Positions 2,435-12,914 of a stretch of DNA of 13,559 nt are shown here, piece by piece (within the stretch, counting starts at the first letter, position 1; the number at the start of each line of letters is the position of its first letter). The notes beneath the pieces were generated by a model, which was given only the letters and a program-made list of their open reading frames with translations, ran no database searches and had not been told where the DNA came from. The position numbers and the translations under genes were made by a program. The stretch comes from a virus (lineage: Duplodnaviria > Heunggongvirae > Uroviricota > Caudoviricetes). The stretch spans positions 1-13,559 of the IMG/VR virus record IMGVR_UViG_3300033075_001617; one strand, given 5' to 3'.

Positions 2435-3204
2435 GTTCCGAATTTTCCTGTGATTAGCGCCTCTGGCGTGAGCGCCTCCTGACGTCTTGCTCGATCTACC
2501 CTAGAGGGGATAAGAGACACCACCAGCCCATTGAGAAAGACGATGTCCACATCATGTTTGGTGTATTCATCCAACTTCAGTTCCATCTCGATACATCCAC
2601 GGAACATCCCTGCTTTCACGGACCCATCCTTTGCCAAACGCAGGAGGGCGCCTTGACTGTGAGCCACGATACGTTGGGCCGGATTGTGAACACCCTCAAC
2701 GAACTCATGATTCTCTATCGCATTTGCGATGTCCTCCTCATGCACGTGCCATGATGTGGATATCACTATGGGCTTCGGCTGATTCTTGCTTTTACCCTTG
2801 ATGGCCAGCAAAGCACTATTGGGGTCGGTCCCCTCCAGCAAGAAGCCGCGCAATTGTGACCAGTCCGTCAATACGATGTAGTGCGCGGGAAACTCGGCAC
2901 TGCCGATAATGGCGCAGATCACCTGACCATCAGAGTCCGTATGGAACCATGGCACCGTATTCTCTCGCACACCATCAAGGGAGACGCATCCAAGGTCTTC
3001 CCACTCACGCTTCAAGCGGATGTACATCTCCTGTCGGCAGAGCAGCACGTATGGGCCCTTCAGGGTGCCGCCCTTCTTTATGATGCCTCCGGCGAGTTCC
3101 AAGAACGCGTCTTGCAACGCGTTCTTGGTCATCGTATCGGCATCCACTATCTTACCAACATGCATCCTCTTGTTGGTGATAAGCGCCTTTATCATCTCAC
3201 TCAT
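2431..3204 (-). CDS. Hypothetical protein, 257 aa; N-half resembles an HK97-fold capsid A-domain
   Basis: The ORF is solid (ATGA overlap downstream, 14-nt gap upstream). The fold guess rests on the pattern TMTKNALQDAFLEL..GG..PYVLLC..MYIRL..FHTDSDG..IIGSAEFPAHYIVLTDWSQL, matched by eye only. Confidence 0.75.
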   Translation of the reverse strand: MSEMIKALITNKRMHVGKIVDADTMTKNALQDAFLELAGGIIKKGGTLKGPYVLLCRQEMYIRLKREWEDLGCVSLDGVRENTVPWFHTDSDGQVICAIIGSAEFPAHYIVLTDWSQLRGFLLEGTDPNSALLAIKGKSKNQPKPIVISTSWHVHEEDIANAIENHEFVEGVHNPAQRIVAHSQGALLRLAKDGSVKAGMFRGCIEMELKLDEYTKHDVDIVFLNGLVVSLIPSRVDRARRQEALTPEALITGKFGT

Positions 3205-3218
3205 GATGCGTGCTTTTA

Positions 3219-4607
3219 TCAGGCCAAGTCATCCTCGTCGAACTCTACCGACTTGGGAGCGGAACTGTCCCAATCGAAGCCCACGCTCTCGCCCTCCAAC
3301 AAGCCTTGCTCCTGCGCCATTTCGTAGACGGTCTTGAGCAGTTCGGTCGTCTGACTGAACACCGCGCGCACCTCGTCAAGGGTAACGGTCTTCTTCTTCT
3401 TGCTGACGGCGTACTTTACGATGTCCTCCGAGAACTGCTTGATACGCGTTCCGGTGATGCCCTTGTTGTCGGCATCGAACATGTCGCGCAAGGTGTCCTC
3501 GATCTCCTTTTTGGTGCCCTCCACGATCTTGTCCTTGCCGAAGAAGTAGTCCTTCAGATATATCTCGGCGCACTTCATCACGTACTCGCCTTTCAGGTTG
3601 CCGAAAGCGAATATCTGGTCAACACGTCCGGGGCGCTGAAGTATCCTCTTCTCGATCTTCTGCGGATAGTTCGTGGTCATGATGATGTAAGCTCCCTTGG
3701 GGTTGACGGGCTGGTCGATACCGTCGAGGAAGTTGAGCAAGTTGCTCTCGGGGCGCTGGAGGCTGCTCTCGGCATCCTCAAGCACACAGATGGTGCTCAC
3801 GTTGTATTTGGCGCACAGGTTCAAGTGTGTCGCTAGTGATCCGATGTCGGTGAAGAACGTCACGTTCTTCTCCTTCATGTACTGGTTGGCGATGCGGATG
3901 GTGAGGGATGACTTTCCTGTGCCGGGAGGGCCCACGAGCATCACCTTCCTTGTTCCGGGCATGCCCCAGCGGGTGAACAGGTCGAGGTTCCCGAAGAACA
4001 TGTCGATGTCCTCCTTGACGAACTTGACCGATTCATGCACCACAGGGGTCTCCTTGAGCTTCTTGCGGGGCATGTACACACCCTTCTCGTTCTTGTACAC
4101 CTGACCCACTGGTGGCTTCTTGCGCTTCTTCGCCTCCTTGTTGATCAGTTGTATCAACTTGGCCCACACCGAGTCCTCGGTGGCGAAGATGGAATCCACC
4201 ATACGGCTCTTGCCGTCGCCCGTGACCCATTTCGCGAAATACATGAACGTCCCATCGGAGAAGTTCAACTTGAAGATGCCCGTCTGGTCGTTGATGTCGA
4301 TCTCGTTCTTGTTCTTCTTGTTCAGATCAATGGAGAAGGAGAATCGGATGACATCATCATCCACGCTGTCGATGGAGGCGATGTGGAAGGACTTCACGCG
4401 TGAGCGCTTGGCCTGATCCATCAGGTCGCGGAACAAACTGTAGTCGTATTCCGTGGTGTACTGCACGCGGACCTTGCCGCATGTTTTCCCCTTGTCCTTT
4501 TTGTACATGTCTACCAGCTTGTGGTAGTAGCTCTCCGCTATTGCCGTTGTCTTCATCGGCTCCAGTTGTGCCTTCGCGTCGTCCGCCTTGATGGTCTGTG
4601 ATTTCAT
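3219..4607 (-). CDS. AAA+ ATPase (classical AAA clade, BCS1-like core) with an uncharacterised N-terminal region
   Basis: Walker A GPPGTGKS, Walker B ICVLEDAE, LLNFLDG, sensor-1 MTTN, second region of homology RILQRPGRVD. Confidence 0.92.
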   Translation of the reverse strand: MKSQTIKADDAKAQLEPMKTTAIAESYYHKLVDMYKKDKGKTCGKVRVQYTTEYDYSLFRDLMDQAKRSRVKSFHIASIDSVDDDVIRFSFSIDLNKKNKNEIDINDQTGIFKLNFSDGTFMYFAKWVTGDGKSRMVDSIFATEDSVWAKLIQLINKEAKKRKKPPVGQVYKNEKGVYMPRKKLKETPVVHESVKFVKEDIDMFFGNLDLFTRWGMPGTRKVMLVGPPGTGKSSLTIRIANQYMKEKNVTFFTDIGSLATHLNLCAKYNVSTICVLEDAESSLQRPESNLLNFLDGIDQPVNPKGAYIIMTTNYPQKIEKRILQRPGRVDQIFAFGNLKGEYVMKCAEIYLKDYFFGKDKIVEGTKKEIEDTLRDMFDADNKGITGTRIKQFSEDIVKYAVSKKKKTVTLDEVRAVFSQTTELLKTVYEMAQEQGLLEGESVGFDWDSSAPKSVEFDEDDLA

Positions 4608-5182
4608 TGCCCTTGTTCGTTAAGTGTCTCTTGGTTCTCAAATGCTATCCTCCAACCTCCACGTATCTTCCTTACCTTCTTGTTCAGGACGAATCCATGG
4701 CCTCTCGCCTTGTTGTCCACTACTTCATCCACATATGCCTGAGTGACCACGCAATGCATACCGGCATCAACGCGTGACTTCGCGTATCGGCCTGCCGGAG
4801 TGTCCAGCAGGTATATCCTGCCGATGATCGTTCGACTTTCCTTGTCGTACAGAATGTCGAGAAGTTGGAACGCCGACTCGTTCGGATGGAGGATCTCCTC
4901 GTCGTCGAACGTGCCGTCTATGGTCTGATTGGCGGCTATGGCGATGGGGTCCTGTGTGGCGTATTGCTCGTACTCCTCGATGGACATGTCGTTCTCCACG
5001 CTCTCTTGGATGGCCTCCTCCAACTTACCGTAAGCCAAATCGGCATCCACCAGCTTCTTTTTGTAGTAGGCCACTGCCTTCTCCACTGACACCTCATCCA
5101 ACGGAGGTGCCTCAGAGAGCGGCAATGTGTAGAGAACGCCGTCCAAAACGTAGTTCTCTTTATCTATCAGTAGAAGTGACAT
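4604..5182 (-). CDS. T4 gp21-like prohead protease homologue, apparently lacking the catalytic motif
   Basis: TIIGRIYLLDTPAGRYAKSRVDAG matches the gp21-family GxxxILxTPxGxxxxxxxxxG pattern, but the following SSRG motif reads VTQAY. ATG 5182 is preferred over 5224 because a promoter lies at 5200-5232. The ORF is confident; the family call is moderate. Confidence 0.6.
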   Translation of the reverse strand: MSLLLIDKENYVLDGVLYTLPLSEAPPLDEVSVEKAVAYYKKKLVDADLAYGKLEEAIQESVENDMSIEEYEQYATQDPIAIAANQTIDGTFDDEEILHPNESAFQLLDILYDKESRTIIGRIYLLDTPAGRYAKSRVDAGMHCVVTQAYVDEVVDNKARGHGFVLNKKVRKIRGGWRIAFENQETLNEQGQ

Positions 5183-5199
5183 GACTATCTTTAGAGAAG

Positions 5200-5232
5200 C
5201 AAATATAGTCATTGAAACACTCATGCAACAAA
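5200..5232 (-). promoter_or_regulatory. Bacteroidota primary-sigma-type promoter (-33 TTTG / -7 TAnnTTTG)
   Basis: Minus strand TTTG(5232-5229)-N21-TATATTTG(5207-5200), immediately after a terminator and 17 nt before ATG 5182. Confidence 0.7.
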
Positions 5233-5239
5233 TGAGTGC

Positions 5240-5272
5240 AAAAAAGAAGGGGCGGCCAAATGGCCGCCCCTT
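5240..5272 (-). terminator. Rho-independent terminator closing the envelope module
   Basis: Minus strand AAGGGGCGGCC-ATTT-GGCCGCCCCTT-C-TTTTTT: an 11-bp stem plus U-tract, 20 nt after the TAA at 5293. Confidence 0.9.
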
Positions 5273-5292
5273 GCTTGTCGAAGAGTTGTCTC

Positions 5293-7086
5293 TTACCCCT
5301 CCATGGTCATCATGATGTCCTCCACCTGCTGTGTAAGCCTGATGAATTCCGGCATGCGCTTGGTGTGCCTGTCACGATGAAGCCCGAGGTCCACCTTGAT
5401 GTGATGAACGAATTTGGCTGGAGGCTTGCACATGATGTAGATGTCATCCGCCAAGTACACGGCCTCATCAATGGCATGTGTCACCAGCACCACAGTGGGC
5501 TTGAACTCCTCGAAGATGGAGCACATGAGGTCCTGTAGTTGCGCCCGCGTCTTCACATCAAGCGCACCGAACGGCTCATCCAACAACAAGACCTGCGGAT
5601 TGGCGAGAAGGCTGCGGGCGATGGCCACACGCTGTAGTTGTCCTCCCGATAATGTTGGCTTGCGGGCATACTTCATCTCGTGGCCCTCCAACCCTACGCG
5701 CTTGATCATCTCCATTGCCCTGTGGCGACGCTCGGCCTTCTTCACCCCCTGATACTTCAGACCCAAGGCGACGTTGTCCAACACCGTGAGCCACGGGAAG
5801 GAGGAGTACTCCTGAAACACCATGCCGAGGCGTATCATCCAACTGTTGGTGTTGAGGCCATTGACGAATATCTCACCGGATGTCGGTGTATCCAAGTTCG
5901 CCAAGAACCGCAGCAGCGTGCTCTTGCCGCAGCCGCTGGCACCCATGATGATGGCGAACTCTCCCTCCGGCTTGTTGGCGATCACAAGCTCCACATCCTT
6001 CAGTACTGTGACATCCGGACGGGGCTGGGCCCATGAGTTTAACGCGTCGGCCCAACCCAACCACTTGATGATGGAGGCCAGTGTTCTTTTCAAGAAGCCT
6101 GAACCTTCTGGGGTGTCCACCATCCAGTTCAACTCCCTCGCTATGGGCATGAGCCATTTGATCCCCCGTTTGCCCTTATAGGTCTTCGTAACATTGTGGA
6201 CCTCGACCACGTTCTTGCACGTCTCTGCCGGAGTGTTAGGGTCACTCACGGTCGTGCTCGCAGCCTGTACTGTGGCCGCACCGTAAGTGGCGGACCCACT
6301 TGAGGCGCTCTTGTACTTGTCCGGGAAAACGATCCAGTCCAATATCCGCAAGAGCATGTCTTGAACGAAGGCCCACATGATGATCAGAATGACCAACGCC
6401 CATTGTTGTTCATAGCGTGAGTGGCGTCCAGCCTCCTCGATCATAGCGCCTATACCACCGGTGTTATTGATGTACTCCGCTATGACGATGTACGTCCAAC
6501 TGATGGCCACGAGGGAGATTATATCGGTGCTGACCCGACGTAATACGTCCGGAAAGAAGACCGTCCATATCTTCTCCTGCGAAGAGGCCCCCAATGTCTG
6601 GGCCGTGTGCAAGTGGACATCAAGCGTCTCTTGAACACGAGACGCCACGGTCGGTATCATATAGACCATGATGCCGATGGCCAAGAATTGTATCTTGACG
6701 TTGTCATAGATGCCAAACCAAGTGATCATCAGTCCGATGATGGCCGTCAATGGAAGGTATCGAGCGGCCTGTATGTAGACGCCCAAGAAGGCACGCACAG
6801 GGGCAAAGAGGCCAATCAAAAATCCCAACACGACCGAAATGAGTACGGCCTCACCCATGCCTATGAAGTTCAGCTTTATGGAGTAAGCCAAACTATCCCA
6901 CATGCCTCGGTCAATCGCCGAGGGATAGCTCATGGCGACCTTCAGCGGCTCAGGAAGAGTGCTCCGGGAAATGAAGCCCAGTGAGGTGATGGCCTGCCAC
7001 ACCGACAGGATGACGAGAAAGCCCGTGAAGCCGATGATGAACCGCTGAAGAGGCGTCAGTGTTCCTTTGAGTTTCCACATGTTCAT
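5293..7086 (-). CDS. Fused ABC transporter: SsuC/TauC-type permease plus SsuB/TauB (NitT/TauT)-type ATPase
   Basis: N-half has about 6 TM segments, an EAA-like loop HTAQTLGAS and WTYIVIAE. C-half has Walker A GASGCGKST, Q-loop MVFQEY, signature LSGGQ, Walker B LLLDEPFGALD and H-loop VTH. Continuous frame through an S/A/T-rich linker. Start uncertain (GTG 7098, ATG 7086 or ATG 7080). Confidence 0.92.
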   Translation of the reverse strand: MNMWKLKGTLTPLQRFIIGFTGFLVILSVWQAITSLGFISRSTLPEPLKVAMSYPSAIDRGMWDSLAYSIKLNFIGMGEAVLISVVLGFLIGLFAPVRAFLGVYIQAARYLPLTAIIGLMITWFGIYDNVKIQFLAIGIMVYMIPTVASRVQETLDVHLHTAQTLGASSQEKIWTVFFPDVLRRVSTDIISLVAISWTYIVIAEYINNTGGIGAMIEEAGRHSRYEQQWALVILIIMWAFVQDMLLRILDWIVFPDKYKSASSGSATYGAATVQAASTTVSDPNTPAETCKNVVEVHNVTKTYKGKRGIKWLMPIARELNWMVDTPEGSGFLKRTLASIIKWLGWADALNSWAQPRPDVTVLKDVELVIANKPEGEFAIIMGASGCGKSTLLRFLANLDTPTSGEIFVNGLNTNSWMIRLGMVFQEYSSFPWLTVLDNVALGLKYQGVKKAERRHRAMEMIKRVGLEGHEMKYARKPTLSGGQLQRVAIARSLLANPQVLLLDEPFGALDVKTRAQLQDLMCSIFEEFKPTVVLVTHAIDEAVYLADDIYIMCKPPAKFVHHIKVDLGLHRDRHTKRMPEFIRLTQQVEDIMMTMEG

Positions 7087-7101
7087 ATTGCTTTTCACAA
7101 A

Positions 7102-7129
7102 GCGGGGCGTCCAGTTTGGACGCCCCTGC
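7102..7129 (-). terminator. Intergenic GC-rich hairpin (weak terminator or mRNA-stabilising stem)
   Basis: GGGGCGTCCA-3 nt-TGGACGCCCC, a 10-bp stem (7104-7126) between the binding-protein and permease genes. It is followed by only GCTTTGTG on the minus strand. Confidence 0.6.
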
Positions 7130-7151
7130 CGTGCTGTTGGTTCATGACGCG

Positions 7152-8759
7152 TTAGTCCTCCAGTAGCTCGAAGTCGGTGCGACGATACTCCTCGTTGTCG
7201 CCCTCCACACCGTTGGCGATGGCATCCTTCGGGCCGTTTCCGATCACGATGAAACGATTCGGGTCGCAGTCGTATTCCTCTTCGAGGTAGTCCGCCACGG
7301 CCTGAGCGCGTCGCTTGGAGAGCTTCCGGTTGGCCTCCTCACTACCGGTGTTGTCGGTGTTACCGACGATGCGGATACGCGCACTTGCGTTTGTCTTCAC
7401 CGCATCACCGAACTGGCGCTTGATGATGTTCTTGGCCTTGTCATCAAGCTTGTAATTGCCCGTGGCAAAGTTCACCGTCACCGAAAGGTGTGTCAGGGCC
7501 GGTTCCTCGATCGTCTGGGAGGTCGCTGGGGTGAACTCCTTGCGCCCTTCCGCCTTGTGTTCGTCGCCTTTGAGGCGTTCGGCCACCTTGTCGATGATAC
7601 GGCTATCGAATACGGTGCTCCATGCGGGGGGCTCATTGGTGATGTCACCGCTTGCCATATACATGGCACCGAACTTCGAGTAGATTTCCTTGGCCTTCAT
7701 TCCCTTGAAGGACTTGTTCATTCCGAACAGGTTCAGGTTATCACCGATGGTGAGGAAGCGTCCGTTGTCCATGTCAGCCATGGCCGTTGCTTCATCGGGC
7801 CACTTCATGTACTTGACCAAGGCTTTGGCCAAGCGCTCGCGAGCGGGCCTGCCACCCGCCTTCAGTTCAGCGTTCGCCTTCATCCAGCCGGTGAAGAAGT
7901 CCACCACACGATCTTCATGTTGATCCAAATACTCCTTGCGCACCAAGAACACGTTGTAGATGAGGTTTGAGGCGGTCTTGGTGCTGATGAGCACGCGGGA
8001 GCCCTCCACGTCTTCAAGGCAGGCTGCGTCCTCCGGCTTCCACAATACGACAGCATCGGCCTTACCGCTCTTGAACACGGTGGCTGCCATGGCGGGTGTA
8101 AGCGTAGAGATGGGGTTGATGTCTTTGATGGTGAGCCCCGCCGCTTGAAGCGTATTCAAGAGGAAACTGTTGGAGGGGGTGAGCCCGGCGAACGCGACGG
8201 TCTTACCCTTGAGATCGGCAACGCTCTTGATGTCGCTCGTGACGATTATCAAGTCGGCGCCCTCACTGCAATCAGTAGCTATGACAGTCTGCGCCACTGT
8301 CGGGTCCGCCGCTAGGCCTTCCGCCTCCCCGGAGAATGAGTCGATGGTTCCCCACACCGCGTCGATGGCTCCGCTGGTGAGGGCCGCCCGCGTCTGGTTG
8401 AAGTTGTTCATGACGGTGAAATTCACCGGCAAGCCGAACTCCTTGCGGAAACGCGATCCGGGGTTGTCCTTCAGGCCGTTGTTGAAGTCCACGCACGTGA
8501 TGTACTCGGGCCAATCACAAATACCGGCATTGAAGGCTTTCTCATCGTAATTGATGGGCACCTCGGGTGCGATGCCATCGCTGCTGCTGGCGGTGGTCTG
8601 TGGCTGTTCCGTATTGGCCGTGGTAGCTGTGGCGTCCGTTGTTGCCTTGTCGGTGCCGGAGAAAGCCCAATAGGCCAGTCCGGCGATGAGCGCTCCGAAC
8701 ACCAAGAACGGAATGATCTTGGGCGTGCTCTTTTTCTGTGTGGTGTACTCCTGTTCCAT
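7152..8759 (-). CDS. Membrane-anchored SsuA/NMT1-THI5-type substrate-binding protein fused to a C-terminal OmpA-like domain
   Basis: N-terminal TM IIPFLVFGALIAGLAYWAF and a T/A/Q-rich linker. Type-2 periplasmic binding fold motifs IKSVADLKGKTVAF, GKADAVVLWKP and VFLVRKEYL. OmpA-like C-terminus VNFATG..RIRIVGNTDNTGSEEANRKLSKRRAQAVADYL..RRTDF. Confidence 0.92.
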   Translation of the reverse strand: MEQEYTTQKKSTPKIIPFLVFGALIAGLAYWAFSGTDKATTDATATTANTEQPQTTASSSDGIAPEVPINYDEKAFNAGICDWPEYITCVDFNNGLKDNPGSRFRKEFGLPVNFTVMNNFNQTRAALTSGAIDAVWGTIDSFSGEAEGLAADPTVAQTVIATDCSEGADLIIVTSDIKSVADLKGKTVAFAGLTPSNSFLLNTLQAAGLTIKDINPISTLTPAMAATVFKSGKADAVVLWKPEDAACLEDVEGSRVLISTKTASNLIYNVFLVRKEYLDQHEDRVVDFFTGWMKANAELKAGGRPARERLAKALVKYMKWPDEATAMADMDNGRFLTIGDNLNLFGMNKSFKGMKAKEIYSKFGAMYMASGDITNEPPAWSTVFDSRIIDKVAERLKGDEHKAEGRKEFTPATSQTIEEPALTHLSVTVNFATGNYKLDDKAKNIIKRQFGDAVKTNASARIRIVGNTDNTGSEEANRKLSKRRAQAVADYLEEEYDCDPNRFIVIGNGPKDAIANGVEGDNEEYRRTDFELLED

Positions 8760-8792
8760 TTTGTTGATTTTGTCGTTTGTGACGTTATTGAT

Positions 8793-8823
8793 GTTCTACG
8801 TATTTTCTACGCAGAATGTTTCA
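8793..8823 (-). promoter_or_regulatory. Bipartite promoter-like motif, copy 2 (TGAAACATT-N14-CGTAGAAC)
   Basis: Intergenic; minus strand T GAAACATT CTGCGTAGAAAATA CGTAGAAC, upstream of the binding-protein ATG at 8759. Confidence 0.65.
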
Positions 8824-8834
8824 GGTGGGCCCTA

Positions 8835-9908
8835 TTATTTCAGGTACTTGGATGCGGCTTTCTCAGCGGTGTTGGGTGTCGCAACAGGTATCGCCTCAGG
8901 TGTAACCAAGGCAGCATCCCCCTCCAGATAGGACAGGTTGTCCTGAAGCTTGGCGTCCATCTTCTGGTCCCACTCGGCCAGCAGGCGCTTGCCAGCCTCC
9001 TCGCTCAGCTTGGCGTTCACGTCATGCGTATTGAAGGCGCTCTTGAACTCATCCATCATCGCGTCGATGTCGCCCTTGTCCTCGTCGGTCCGCTTGAGCA
9101 TCAACTCGTACGAGTCATCGAACATGTCGCGGGCCGCGCTGCCACCGAAGGCCACCTCGCGTGCGTGCATGAACACGGACCTCGCCTTGGAAATGGTCTC
9201 GTGGTTGCGGATCATGCGCTCCACCTTGCTGGAGAGACGACCAACCATGGCAGCCGTGAACATTTCGGCCTTTCTCAACACTTTGAGCATCAGGTCAAGG
9301 CGACTGCTTTCGGCTTGCAGCATCTTGAGACTTGCGTCGGCATCACCAACGGAACCCGCAATGGTGGTGAGTTCTATCTTCAATTGCTGGATGATCTCCG
9401 GGTCCGTCTCGGTGGCCAACAAACTGTTGATGTCACGCCTGCGCTTGACAGCCTCGTCGATCTCTTCTCGTGTGCGGTTGATGTCCCCATCCACAGTGCC
9501 TTTGCCTTTGCTGACATCCCGGATACTTCCACGGATCAATCCGAGGCTCTCTTGCCGATCATCAATGTAGGTCCTCATGATCTGCACATAGTTCCGGCTC
9601 ACATAGCCGTTCACGATGAACGAGATCAATCCCTTGTACCAATATGACAACATGGTCCTGATCTTCGGGCGTGTCAATGTGTACACGATGAAGCCCACCA
9701 CGCCTACGATCAGCCCTGCGCGTACCAAAGCGAGCGTGAAGTCAGCGGCGCCGTTGACGAAGGCTATCAAGTACGGCCACAACCTGCTGAGGCCGATGAC
9801 TCCGGCGATGACCATGAGCCCAAGGCCGAGCTTGCCCCACATTCCTTCTTTCTTGTCCCAGAACGTCTGCTGCTTGTTGGCATCGTTCGATTGCATGAGC
9901 ATTCCCAT
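8835..9908 (-). CDS. Membrane-anchored long coiled-coil protein, PspA/IM30-like (2 N-terminal TM segments)
   Basis: Two hydrophobic segments (LGLGLMVIAGVIGL..., LALVRAGLIVGVVGFIVYTL) followed by about 230 aa of heptad-rich helix and a terminal KRLLAEWDQK helix. Double stop TAA TAG. The PspA-likeness is an architectural inference. Confidence 0.75.
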   Translation of the reverse strand: MGMLMQSNDANKQQTFWDKKEGMWGKLGLGLMVIAGVIGLSRLWPYLIAFVNGAADFTLALVRAGLIVGVVGFIVYTLTRPKIRTMLSYWYKGLISFIVNGYVSRNYVQIMRTYIDDRQESLGLIRGSIRDVSKGKGTVDGDINRTREEIDEAVKRRRDINSLLATETDPEIIQQLKIELTTIAGSVGDADASLKMLQAESSRLDLMLKVLRKAEMFTAAMVGRLSSKVERMIRNHETISKARSVFMHAREVAFGGSAARDMFDDSYELMLKRTDEDKGDIDAMMDEFKSAFNTHDVNAKLSEEAGKRLLAEWDQKMDAKLQDNLSYLEGDAALVTPEAIPVATPNTAEKAASKYLK

Positions 9909-9928
9909 TTTGTACAGAGGTGTGAGTG

Positions 9929-10672
9929 TTACTTCGTGGTTGTTTCGGTGACGGGGTCGGCGGGCAAGTGCAGTTCGATGTTGTCCACCTTTTCTTGGAA
10001 GTCCTTGATGATGGACCCCATGGTGGCCAAGAAGTTCAGGCGCTGACGGTCCAGTTCGATGTTGTGCTTGGAGATCTCGTCCTCCAAGCCCGCCATGACG
10101 GTCTGCTTCTCCTTGATCTTGCGCTCCAGTTCGGCGCGCTGTGCATCCAGTTCGGCGACCTCTTTGGAGATGGCCTCGTAGTCCTTGCGCTTTGTACCCA
10201 CACGCTCGTCGACGAGGGTCTGGAAAGATACCTCGAAGTCGGTCTGCTCATCGATCAACAACTTGATGTAGTGCCGACCCGACTCCAACAAGGTCTTCTT
10301 GATCGCGGGGTCCTTCTTGCTGAGGCGCTTGATGGTGTTGTAGGCGTTGGTGTATTTGTCCACCGTGCGGACAGTCCCGTCACCATCCAGCAGGTCGTTG
10401 AACTCCTTGAAGTCGTAACCATCGATGTTCCCTTCCTCAATGAGGTTCAGGAGTTGCGCACGCAGGGTATCGTCAACGATGCCCGATTTTGGTGAGACCA
10501 AATCCTGTGCAGGAACGATAGGGGAGGGCGCTGGGCCTGCGGCGGCGGCGGGTGCTGACTGCTGGACCGGGACCTTCACCTCCACCTCATTGAAAAAGGT
10601 GTTGCGCAGGAACGAGCCTATCTTGCTCAGGCCTTGTCCCTTCTCTTCTTTTTTGACTACGGTTGTTGCCAT
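9929..10672 (-). CDS. Soluble coiled-coil protein with an N-terminal amphipathic helix
   Basis: GLSKIGSFLRNTFF amphipathic segment, Pro/Ala linker, helical core (GYDFKEF..Y..L..E..DF) and a long C-terminal coiled coil (EVAELDAQRAELERKIKEKQ..). Confidence 0.85.
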   Translation of the reverse strand: MATTVVKKEEKGQGLSKIGSFLRNTFFNEVEVKVPVQQSAPAAAAGPAPSPIVPAQDLVSPKSGIVDDTLRAQLLNLIEEGNIDGYDFKEFNDLLDGDGTVRTVDKYTNAYNTIKRLSKKDPAIKKTLLESGRHYIKLLIDEQTDFEVSFQTLVDERVGTKRKDYEAISKEVAELDAQRAELERKIKEKQTVMAGLEDEISKHNIELDRQRLNFLATMGSIIKDFQEKVDNIELHLPADPVTETTTK

Positions 10673-10692
10673 TTGGTTTTGGAGTTGTGAGC

Positions 10693-10723
10693 GTTCTACG
10701 ATCGAACTGGTCGAATTGTTTCA
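10693..10723 (-). promoter_or_regulatory. Bipartite promoter-like motif, copy 3 (TGAAACAAT-N14-CGTAGAAC)
   Basis: Minus strand T GAAACAAT TCGACCAGTTCGAT CGTAGAAC. The TGA is also the DUF3228 stop codon; lies upstream of ATG 10672. Confidence 0.65.
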
Positions 10724-11329
10724 CCGCACCATGGCGTGGGTGTTCCAATACCCGCAGGCGGCAATGTAGTCGGCTTTGTCCAGCGGCACCCCATTGCCGC
10801 CTTCTTCTATCCCCAAGGCGTTGCGCATCATGGTGATGGGAGGCATTGGAGGCACCTCCACGCTGTCCAAGGCGAACACCGCGATGACGCTCCAATCGTT
10901 GTCTGGCACTGCCGCCCGCTCCTCGTCGGTCTTGGCCTCCAGCAAAAGCTGCTCGCGGCTGTAGAGCACCAACATCAGTACGTTCGCTGGCGGCTGGGGG
11001 CAGGGAAAGGAGAAGTAGCGGATGAGCACCGGAAGCTCCGAATCGCGCCGCGCCTCGTATTCACTGCGCAACCACTGCGCGTTGCTGTTGTCGATCCTCA
11101 TGTTGGAGAGAGGAGCGCTGGTGAAGTTGCCGATGAAAAGATAGCGGCAGAACGGCATCTTGCTCGGCAGCACGCTACAGACGGACGTGGATGGGGCGCT
11201 CAAGTCCTCGTTGATGTACTTGAGAAAGGAATCAACGGTCAGATCGAACATCGGCTTGCTATTGCCGCCGCCGATGAAGCTCTTCTTGACGAAATCGGCC
11301 GCGCCGATAGAGGTAATGCCGTTTTCCAT
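10721..11329 (-). CDS. DUF3228 family protein
   Basis: Characteristic blocks PFCRYLFIGNFT, LRSEYEARRDSELPVL, LYSREQL, PMPPITMMRNALGIEEGGNGVPLD and YWNTHA. ATG 11329 is preferred because the GTG at 11353 lies inside promoter motifs. Confidence 0.85.
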   Translation of the reverse strand: MENGITSIGAADFVKKSFIGGGNSKPMFDLTVDSFLKYINEDLSAPSTSVCSVLPSKMPFCRYLFIGNFTSAPLSNMRIDNSNAQWLRSEYEARRDSELPVLIRYFSFPCPQPPANVLMLVLYSREQLLLEAKTDEERAAVPDNDWSVIAVFALDSVEVPPMPPITMMRNALGIEEGGNGVPLDKADYIAACGYWNTHAMVR

Positions 11330-11335
11330 AGGGGT

Positions 11336-11366
11336 CAAAGATAAGTGCTGCACTTATACGACCCAA
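11336..11366 (-). promoter_or_regulatory. Bacteroidota-type promoter (-33 TTG / -7 TATCTTTG)
   Basis: TTG(11366-11364)-N20-TATCTTTG(11343-11336), 6 nt before ATG 11329. Confidence 0.5.
11341..11357. repeat. Perfect 8-1-8 palindrome (operator-like)
   Basis: ATAAGTGC-T-GCACTTAT, overlapping both promoter-like elements upstream of DUF3228. Confidence 0.6.
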
Positions 11367-11382
11367 CACAAGAAATTGTTTC
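11353..11382 (-). promoter_or_regulatory. Bipartite promoter-like motif, copy 4 (GAAACAAT-N14-CGTATAAG)
   Basis: Minus strand GAAACAAT TTCTTGTGTTGGGT CGTATAAG TG; shares the 11-mer TCGTATAAGTG with copy 1. Confidence 0.65.
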
Positions 11383-11957: not shown

Positions 11958-12914
11958 ATGTGGCAACCAGTTCAGCTAGAAAACCCGTGCAAGATATGCA
12001 ATGGACCCATCATCGCCAAAAGAAAGCGCGACTTAGGTAAAGAGGTCTGCGGAAGAGCGTGCGCTGGACGGTTCTATGTTGCCAAGGCCAAAGTCTACGT
12101 TCAATGCCTTCACTGCAAAAAGGAGTTCCTAAGGACATGCAGAACGCAGAACAAGTATTGTTCCAAGAAGTGCTGTGCCCAAACCAAGGTGAAAGTACAC
12201 AAAAGACGGTGCGCTAGATGCAAAAAAGAGTTCACTCTCCAAAACATAGCGTATGAAAGGAGGGGCGGTGGCAAATTTTGCTCTCAAGAGTGTGGAGCAA
12301 AGACTTACCACTGGGATGAGTCATACTTTGAACTCATAGACACAGAACAGAAAGCCTATTGGCTTGGTTTCATAGCTGCCGATGGGTGTGTGGATCGCAA
12401 GGAGTTGCGACTTCATCTATCAGAAAGAGACGTAGAACATATGAAAGAATTCAAGTCGGCCATTCTATCAACCCATCCCATCCATTATACAGCCAACAAG
12501 TCTGTAACATTCATCATCGGCAACAAAAAAATAGTGAAGGACCTGAACTCAGTCGGCATAGCTCACCGTAAGACGTTCACCTTGGAATACCCATCCATAT
12601 CCAAGCGACTGAACCGTCACTTCATTCGTGGTGTATTCGATGGTGACGGTTGCATAACAAACGTTAAAAACAGACACAGTAAACGATGGTCTATCTATAC
12701 AGCCTCAGCAAAGTTCAAAGACCAACTAATCAATGTCATAGAGCATGAAACTGGTGTGACGCCCAGCGTCTATGCTCAACACAAAGGTCACCACATAATG
12801 GTGAACACCAAGGCCGGAATACAGACCCTTGAAAAATACCTGTACAATGGTGCAACCACGTATTTGAAAAGAAAGAGAGAGAAATTTCTCTTCCAGAAGA
12901 ACTCTACCGCTTGA
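11958..12914 (+). mobile_element. Free-standing LAGLIDADG homing endonuclease with N-terminal zinc-finger repeats
   Basis: Three CxxC..CxxxC units (CKIC..CGRAC, CLHC..CSKKC, CARC..CSQEC) and two LAGLIDADG helices (AYWLGFIAADG, HFIRGVFDGDG). The only credible plus-strand gene; about 37-43% GC in two hand-counted lines versus about 57-65% in core genes. Confidence 0.88.

Follow-up and report, generated by a model that had tools for sequence, protein, structure and literature searches.

The first 13.6 kb of an 84,277-bp viral record in IMG/VR (IMGVR_UViG_3300033075_001617; CheckV completeness 44%), a stretch of 13,559 nucleotides that we call the window, carries four co-oriented minus-strand open reading frames (ORFs) of 247, 357, 535 and 601 amino acids (aa) that together occupy positions 5293-10672. 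Our preferred reading, to which we assign a probability of about 45%, is that these genes constitute a phage-borne envelope module in which a wall-tethered ATP-binding cassette (ABC) importer sits beside a membrane-anchored assembly of the PspA/ESCRT-III type, and that the module maintains the envelope and the energetic state of the infected cell. Its parts are listed here from the upstream end (TM, transmembrane; L followed by a number denotes a locus in our survey):

10693-10723, minus strand: promoter-like motif TGAAACA-N16-CGTAGAAC, 25 nt before the start of the 247-aa gene and kept in relatives L009-L011
9929-10672, minus strand: partner protein, 247 aa (ORF; no TM segment by hydropathy)
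8835-9908, minus strand: membrane-anchored PspA/IM30-like protein, 357 aa (ORF, hydropathy, profile comparisons)
8793-8823, minus strand: second copy of the motif, TGAAACA-N16-CGTAGAAC, 38 nt before the start of the 535-aa binding-protein gene
7152-8759, minus strand: binding protein, 535 aa (Pfam, PHROG, hydropathy)
5293-7098, minus strand: fused permease-ATPase, 601 aa (single ORF, Pfam)
6304-7098, minus strand: permease domain of the fused protein, about residues 1-265 (BPD_transp_1, about six hydrophobic segments; phrog_6743)
5296-6210, minus strand: ATPase domain of the fused protein, about residues 297-601 (ABC_tran; about 50 residues are inserted following the first strand)
5247-5272, minus strand: intrinsic terminator (11-bp stem with 9 GC pairs, 4-nt loop, T-run)

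An initial annotation, made from the letters of the sequence, had named all four parts at these positions and described them as a discrete unit. ORF calls, Pfam and hydropathy place every part where it was said to be. The genes are bracketed by two promoter-like motifs and by a strong terminator (5272-5247, minus strand), which scores best of all those in the window. Both motif copies also lie at the sites named in that annotation, but such motifs are not exclusive to these genes: the 84-kb contig contains 8 copies of GAAAC-N17-CGTA, compared with 0.31 +/- 0.54 in Markov shuffles, and six of the eight copies are intergenic and located 4-38 nt before a start codon on the same strand. The copies in the window are at 11357-11382, 10697-10722 and 8797-8822 (all minus strand), the first of these being an intergenic copy that precedes a neighbouring DUF3228 gene. 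L012 retains the copy before the binding-protein gene at the same position, although its proteins and those of the window share only 43-57% identity. The motif is thus a genome-wide phage class (consensus tGAAACA-N16-CGTAtAAC), similar to promoters of extracytoplasmic function (ECF) sigma factors, and is not module-specific. We take its resemblance to ECF-sigma promoters such as that of B. subtilis sigma-W (TGAAAC-N16-CGTA) as a lead only; the one sigma gene detected on the contig (58792-59649) encodes an RpoS/RpoD-like protein rather than an ECF factor.

Profile comparisons indicate that the 357-aa protein is a TM-anchored, divergent PspA/IM30 homologue, as the initial annotation had proposed. 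Hydropathy predicts two N-terminal TM helices (about residues 27-51 and 57-75), and an AlphaFold2 (AF2) model (mean confidence, pLDDT, 75) is all helical, with a cytoplasmic part after the second TM helix (TM2) that contains a long hairpin (residues 107-254). A profile search at E<=1e-3 returned 538 representative relatives, all 300-390 aa in length and matched from end to end. When 91 family members were scanned against Pfam, PF04012 (PspA_IM30) matched 25 of them, below threshold and with a best E of 3.2e-5, and no other family exceeded 7 members. Alignment of the 91-member family with 22 canonical Bacteroidota PspA proteins by hhalign gave a probability of 94% (E 1.4e-7), with family columns 84-159 on PspA 3-83, the family's DPI on the PspA EDP at the start of helix 1, and the helix after TM2 on PspA alpha0; P107 and I110 are nearly invariant in the family. 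Nine of the 11 best Foldseek matches in the PDB were Vipp1 or Vipp1/PspA, at modest significance (E about 3e-3, TM-score 0.3-0.5). In whole-genome PF04012 scans of five Bacteroidota that carry the module, only canonical PspA and the module's own genes were recovered at E<=0.01, the orthologous genes scoring 19.5-22.5 bits and missing the gathering cut-off of 33.9. Three family members on short contigs provided no informative gene context.

The initial annotation had paired this protein with the 247-aa protein as two coiled coils, and that claim is supported for one member but not for the other. The 2-TM protein is PspA-like, as described above, whereas Pfam, hhalign and a fold search detected no homology of the 247-aa protein to PspA or to its neighbour, so the pairing is drawn from synteny only, and on sequence comparison the 247-aa partner is not demonstrably PspA-like. 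An AF2 model (pLDDT 80.7) consists of an amphipathic N-terminal helix (about residues 16-27), an Ala/Pro-rich disordered linker, a small helical domain and a long hairpin (124-235). The N-termini of the family share the motif LKSLF-V-E, which recalls the MNFFKRLFKIG alpha0 helix of canonical Bacteroidota PspA, and this amphipathic motif is the sole PspA resemblance. With jackhmmer, the family comprised 137 ORFs in 136 loci, always just upstream of the PspA-like gene. Matches of the window protein in Pfam were confined to generic coiled-coil families, although one orthologue matched PF04012 weakly (E 2.6e-4) in the whole-genome scans; hhalign against the 2-TM family gave 43% over 51 columns, which is not significant, and the fold search with the model returned nothing significant (best E 0.046, to AhlC-type hairpins). 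A complex prediction for the 247-aa protein with the cytoplasmic part of the 2-TM protein scored 0.00, which gives no verdict either way. Contigs from wastewater differ from the window by a net 3-nt in-frame deletion at 10536-10541, within the Ala/Pro-rich linker.

The 535-aa protein has the architecture that had been claimed for it, namely a TM anchor (residues 15-33), a low-complexity spacer, a solute-binding domain of the SsuA/TauA/NMT1 type (about 70-400) and an OmpA-like domain (431-525). Pfam matches to NMT1, Phosphonate-bd and NMT1_2 cover about residues 104-311 (PF09084, 45.4 bits; cut-off 20.5), and OmpA (PF00691) covers 431-525 with 59.8 bits (cut-off 27.2). PHROG 25518 matches the protein over its full length (E 1.2e-50), indicating that phage relatives are already on record. 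Among PDB profile matches, SsuA (2x26) and TauA (6ssy) were closest for the binding domain, and many solved OmpA-like peptidoglycan-binding domains matched the C-terminal part. T468, D469, R484 and A485 are invariant in the OmpA-like domain among 31 diverse homologues, and we take T468/D469 and R484 to correspond to the Asp/Arg pair that contacts the peptide stem in Pal and A. baumannii OmpA. With these conserved residues intact, the domain is predicted to bind peptidoglycan. The binding domain itself has invariant acidic or polar residues at N93, D140, D169 and D244, and its scores against named transporter families were below their cut-offs (NCBIfam SsuA_fam, 100 bits against 163.5; taurine binding protein, 38 against 304).

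The 601-aa ORF encodes both a permease (PF00528 BPD_transp_1, residues 89-254, 44.1 bits; cut-off 26.4) and an ATPase (PF00005 ABC_tran, residues 377-510, 104.3 bits; cut-off 25). The ATPase half keeps Walker A (GASGCGKST), the signature LSGGQ, Walker B (LLLDEP) and the H-loop histidine. Its best NCBIfam matches, TauB, PhnT2, SaoA and NtrCD, all fall below the equivalog cut-offs (TauB, 196 bits against 357). The parts of a type I importer of the NitT/TauT class, namely BPD_transp_1, an intact ABC_tran and a binding protein of the NMT1/SsuA class, are therefore all present. Compared with the separate genes of the 735-kb phage record LR756501, the permease half is 38% and the ATPase half 52% identical. 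An assembly error does not explain the fused ORF: no indel interrupts it in contigs from independent wastewater libraries, and in the metagenomic relative L009 (87% identical) the frame is likewise fused and runs to the end of the contig. The single-chain transporter described in the initial annotation is thus real, but among the approximately 150 loci analysed the fusion is restricted to this narrow lineage, and the next viral relative, L103, has separate genes.

With tblastn, the binding protein found relatives in 15 Lak phage records, in the 735-kb phage (LR756501/LR756503) and in Bacillus phage G. The loci that we read in LR756501, Lak-B5 and phage G each encode a helical protein with an amphipathic N-terminus followed by a TM-anchored helical protein, together with one or two binding-protein/OmpA genes and a separate permease and ATPase. 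The fusion of binding protein to OmpA is also common in Bacteroidota, where the Prokaryotic Genome Annotation Pipeline (PGAP) names it 'phosphate ABC transporter substrate-binding/OmpA family protein', and the five genes, in the same order, lie amid housekeeping genes in a chromosomal contig of Dysgonomonas sp. 521 and in another bacterial metagenome-assembled genome (579-kb contig). Pattern scans based on the binding-protein alignment yielded 72 distinct IMG/VR loci, most of them on contigs of 100-550 kb, and at least 472 relatives among GTDB species genomes.

Linkage was counted with hidden Markov models for all five parts, at loci that were well flanked (at least 4 kb on both sides). All five were co-oriented and in order in 59/67 viral and 24/42 bacterial loci, the bacterial ones mostly from Bacteroidota, and the PspA-like gene was upstream of the binding-protein gene in 60/67 and 37/42, respectively. 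The set is therefore conserved together in phages and bacteria alike, and the Bacteroidota operons with separate permease and ATPase genes that the initial annotation had mentioned do exist, both on the bacterial chromosomes that we read and in the locus patterns. That the PspA-like gene is so tightly linked to the transporter, in more than 100 loci, speaks for a functional coupling of the two and against a plain importer, as had been suggested from the window.

On a FastTree phylogeny of 157 binding proteins, the virus and bacterium labels require only 6-7 changes over 154 rows, compared with about 52 in shuffles, indicating that the phage copies have mostly been inherited within phage lineages, in a few old clades, and are not recent captures. 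The binding protein of the window falls in a group with two metagenomic relatives and that of the viral locus L103. The chromosomal locus of Dysgonomonas sp. 521 (L018) nests in a large, otherwise viral clade beside IMG/VR contigs, a placement that suggests phage-host transfer in Bacteroidales.

Operons of this general composition have been described before. Ravi et al. (2024, mSystems 9:e00847-23, PMC11237479) reported, from comparative genomics only, operons in which genes for PspA and TM-bearing Snf7 homologues, in some cases joined by an AAA+ ATPase gene, accompany those for a permease, an ABC ATPase and a PBPB+OmpA protein, and they suggested that membrane remodelling and solute transport are linked. 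The window holds the co-oriented PspA-type TM protein, permease, ATPase and solute-binding/OmpA protein that define that operon class, and shares with it the TM-bearing ESCRT-III/PspA protein, the second helical protein, the ABC parts, the OmpA-fused binding protein and the occasional adjacent AAA+ gene. Our module is thus a variant of an operon class already described computationally and not a new kind. Their operons, however, are bacterial, whereas here the set is in a phage, the permease and ATPase are one chain, and a single-domain classical AAA protein follows the terminator. Particular to this copy are the fused permease-ATPase, the co-oriented AAA+ gene just downstream and the phage-type ECF-like promoters. 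More recently, Yuan and Chen (bioRxiv 2026, 10.64898/2026.10.24.761521) counted 189 canonical pspA genes in huge phages, with a complete ABC transporter next to 15 of these, noted that PspA-type genes adjoin membrane and transport genes, and proposed a role in membrane maintenance during infection. Because their filter selected proteins of 200-300 aa with PF04012 as the best Pfam match, it would probably miss the 357-aa protein, and the OmpA-fused binding protein and 247-aa partner are absent from their description.

The individual proteins differ from their better-known relatives. The 2-TM protein resembles PspA, Vipp1 (IM30) and LiaH in its predicted helical hairpin core and in the aligned (E)DP motif, with Vipp1 proteins as its best Foldseek matches, but it has two TM helices before the alpha0 equivalent, is about 130 residues longer and scores below the Pfam thresholds, and the module lacks the PspBC/PspF or LiaIFSR partners of PspA and LiaH systems. 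The transporter resembles SsuABC and TauABC in the fold family of its binding protein, in its BPD_transp_1 permease and in its closest ATPase relatives; in contrast to those systems, the binding protein is TM-anchored and OmpA-fused rather than free or lipidated, the transmembrane and nucleotide-binding domains (TMD and NBD) are fused, and the NBD has an N-terminal insert. A C-terminal OmpA-like domain with TD...R is shared with MotB, Pal and YiaD, and the TM-periplasmic-OmpA layout recalls MotB, except that here an entire solute-binding domain forms the spacer and an ABC transporter takes the place of an ion-conducting stator as membrane partner.

Genes on both sides of the module were also considered as possible members:

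3219-5224, minus strand: possible accessory pair directly beyond the terminator, comprising a protein of 206 aa (4604-5224) and a classical AAA+ ATPase of 462 aa (3219-4607)
10721-11382, minus strand: DUF3228 gene, 210 aa, with its own promoter motif (Pfam PF11539, E 7e-49)

The 206-aa gene, which belongs to no known family, overlaps the start of the AAA+ gene. The AAA+ ATPase (Pfam AAA, 43.7 bits) has AFG2, Cdc48 and YjoB as relatives in the PDB, and co-oriented AAA+ homologues lie 7-1453 nt from the module in 6/72 viral loci (L101, L103, L104, L142, L149 and L158), which represent at least three lineages, and in 0/80 bacterial loci. Homologues of the DUF3228 gene were found upstream of the module in L009, L010, L102 and L106 only, and its membership is doubtful. 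Three further features lie nearby in the window or in L009. A free-standing homing endonuclease of the LAGLIDADG type (11958-12914, plus strand; phrog_4645, E 6e-53) occupies a low-GC stretch (0.45-0.47 compared with about 0.55); in L009, the interval between the 106-aa gene and the RNA-ligase-like gene is 321 nt rather than the 1380 nt of the window, indicating an insertion polymorphism. A macro-domain protein, which possibly acts on ADP-ribose, is encoded at 1823-2434 on the minus strand (Pfam Macro, E 2.9e-15; phrog_2613, E 1.8e-54). L009 itself carries, at 2793-4010 and a few kb from the module, an IS605 OrfB/TnpB-type gene with a Cas12f-like TNB domain.

In the mechanism that we favor, two fused chains would form a (TMD-NBD)2 importer, and the binding protein, held between the membrane and the peptidoglycan, would deliver to it a small solute, perhaps of the organosulfonate, aminosulfonate, phosphonate or quaternary-amine class. 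The 2-TM PspA-like protein would assemble beside the pump on the cytoplasmic face, where the 247-aa partner may be recruited through its PspA-alpha0-like amphipathic N-terminal helix, and in this lineage the neighbouring AAA+ ATPase may remodel the PspA-like assembly. The phage would express the set from its own promoters, and the likely purpose would be to keep the inner membrane and the osmotic or energetic state of the host competent during a long infection. The roles put forward in the initial annotation, namely to hold the proton motive force, to counter abortive defences or to exclude superinfection, are all speculative. A bolder form of this mechanism, speculative and in our estimate improbable, is that the binding protein, fixed to both membrane and wall, is a tension sensor or ruler of membrane-to-wall distance that gates the ATPase and an osmolyte-type uptake and nucleates the PspA-like polymer where the envelope is failing, with the AAA+ protein recycling the polymer. 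Swelling, plasmolysis or local membrane damage could then alter the access of the binding protein to the permease. If true, this would define a new class of ABC-coupled ESCRT-III system, and large phages would carry a sensor-plus-repair unit that keeps the cell energised until lysis.

Several observations weigh against an envelope module that couples import to a PspA-like assembly. Twelve of the 42 well-flanked bacterial loci (L021, L022, L026, L032, L033, L035, L036, L041-L043, L065 and L076, mostly Saprospiraceae and Chitinophagales) have the helical genes but no permease or ATPase within 5 kb downstream of the binding-protein gene, and six viral loci carry the transporter without the helical genes; together, these exceptions indicate that the coupling is not obligatory. 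The PspA assignment is not uniform across methods either: the 357-aa window protein itself had no Pfam match at E<=0.01 and no PHROG match, its family profile matched only generic coiled coils among PDB sequences, and in VIA-align the scores for PspA (4whe, Z 11.2), Vipp1 (8qfv, Z 11.1) and CHMP4B (Z 11.1) stood among those of many unrelated hairpins (Z 10-12.5). For the 247-aa family, hhalign against PspA gave 15%, over a short coiled-coil stretch only. Since all NCBIfam transporter matches are below the equivalog cut-offs, no substrate can be assigned. The coverage of the window in metatranscriptome libraries is even, on both strands, and runs across the terminator, so that DNA carry-over is possible and transcription is not demonstrated by these libraries. 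Finally, members of this module class are known from comparative genomics alone.

The principal alternative, which we consider less probable than our preferred reading, is that the set is a plain auxiliary metabolic importer supplying an organic S, N or P source (taurine, alkanesulfonate or phosphonate) for nucleotide and protein synthesis, with the helical proteins as assembly or regulatory accessories and the OmpA domain merely holding the binding protein in place. The closest characterised relatives are indeed the SsuA, TauA and NrtA binding proteins and the TauB, PhnT and SsuB ATPases, the six viral loci mentioned above and several bacterial ones have the transporter without the helical genes, and cyanophage PstS, among others, is a known precedent for a binding protein encoded by a phage. 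None of the scores reaches an equivalog cut-off, however, a double tether by TM segment and OmpA domain is not a feature of nutrient binding proteins, and ordinary Ssu and Tau operons do not have the upstream PspA-like gene that is present in 60/67 viral and 37/42 bacterial loci. We regard it as quite improbable that the module is instead a device for competition between phages, modifying the envelope to exclude superinfection or countering membrane-targeting abortive infection by envelope change or pore repair. Such a role would fit the action of PspA proteins against membrane leaks, the enrichment and vertical retention of the module in very large phages with long infection cycles, and the restriction of the AAA+ neighbour to phage copies; the identical architecture in ordinary bacterial chromosomes, amid housekeeping genes, nevertheless indicates that the basic function of the module is cellular, and nothing in the window ties it to a defence system (PADLOC was not searched). 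A similarly low likelihood attaches to the idea that no solute is imported at all and that the wall-pinned binding protein and the ATPase work mechanically or in trafficking, handling for example envelope lipids or fragments of peptidoglycan, while the PspA-like polymer serves as effector. A binding protein fixed at both ends, by TM segment and OmpA domain, would be an odd shuttle, and the invariant N93, D140, D169 and D244 could fit an amine-bearing envelope fragment, but the permease has the standard BPD_transp_1 fold of type I importers, including the coupling-helix region, and we know of no type I importer that works in this way.

It is very improbable that the contig is a bacterial island or a mis-binned piece of chromosome. 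The main caveat to a phage origin is that no terminase, capsid, portal or tail gene was found in 84 kb of a record that is 44% complete by CheckV: a TerL_ATPase search of the contig had no match, and a comparison of 20 further large ORFs with PHROG revealed replication and nucleotide-metabolism genes only, with no structural genes. The viral origin assumed in the initial annotation is thus supported by the IMG/VR classification and by phage-type replication genes but not by structural genes on this fragment. The phage-type genes include ribonucleotide reductase subunits, a primase-helicase, a helicase, a DNA ligase, a Clp-type ATPase and a sigma factor, with PHROG matches for ribonucleotide reductase, ligase, helicase and the homing endonuclease. 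In addition, many genes are preceded by copies of one promoter motif, bacterial housekeeping genes were not seen, and the nearest relatives of the binding protein are viral or metagenomic. Relatives of the primase-helicase in the phage collection are nearly all from phages of Flavobacterium, Cellulophaga, Tenacibaculum and Maribacter, which points to a host in the Bacteroidota. The entire window had no match to phage records by megablast; near-identical DNA is present in wastewater and riverine runs, and near-identical contigs from four wastewater metatranscriptome libraries cover the whole 13.5-kb window. Two very large minus-strand ORFs (74503-79146 and 79324-84270; 1547 and 1648 aa), which lie at the other end of the contig, have no PHROG match at E<=1e-5.

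Among the gene sets of very large phages that do not serve replication, this module is one of the most widely shared: Lak phages, the 735-kb phage and phage G carry it, as do about 70 IMG/VR contigs from one scan, and it also occurs in several hundred bacterial species. It offers a testable link between ESCRT-III-type membrane remodelling and ABC transport in carriers that are experimentally accessible, including phage G (host Bacillus megaterium) and cultured Aquimarina, Tenacibaculum and Dysgonomonas, and the single-chain transporter of this lineage would ease expression and structural work. An envelope module of this kind may help to explain how huge phages keep their hosts alive during long infections.

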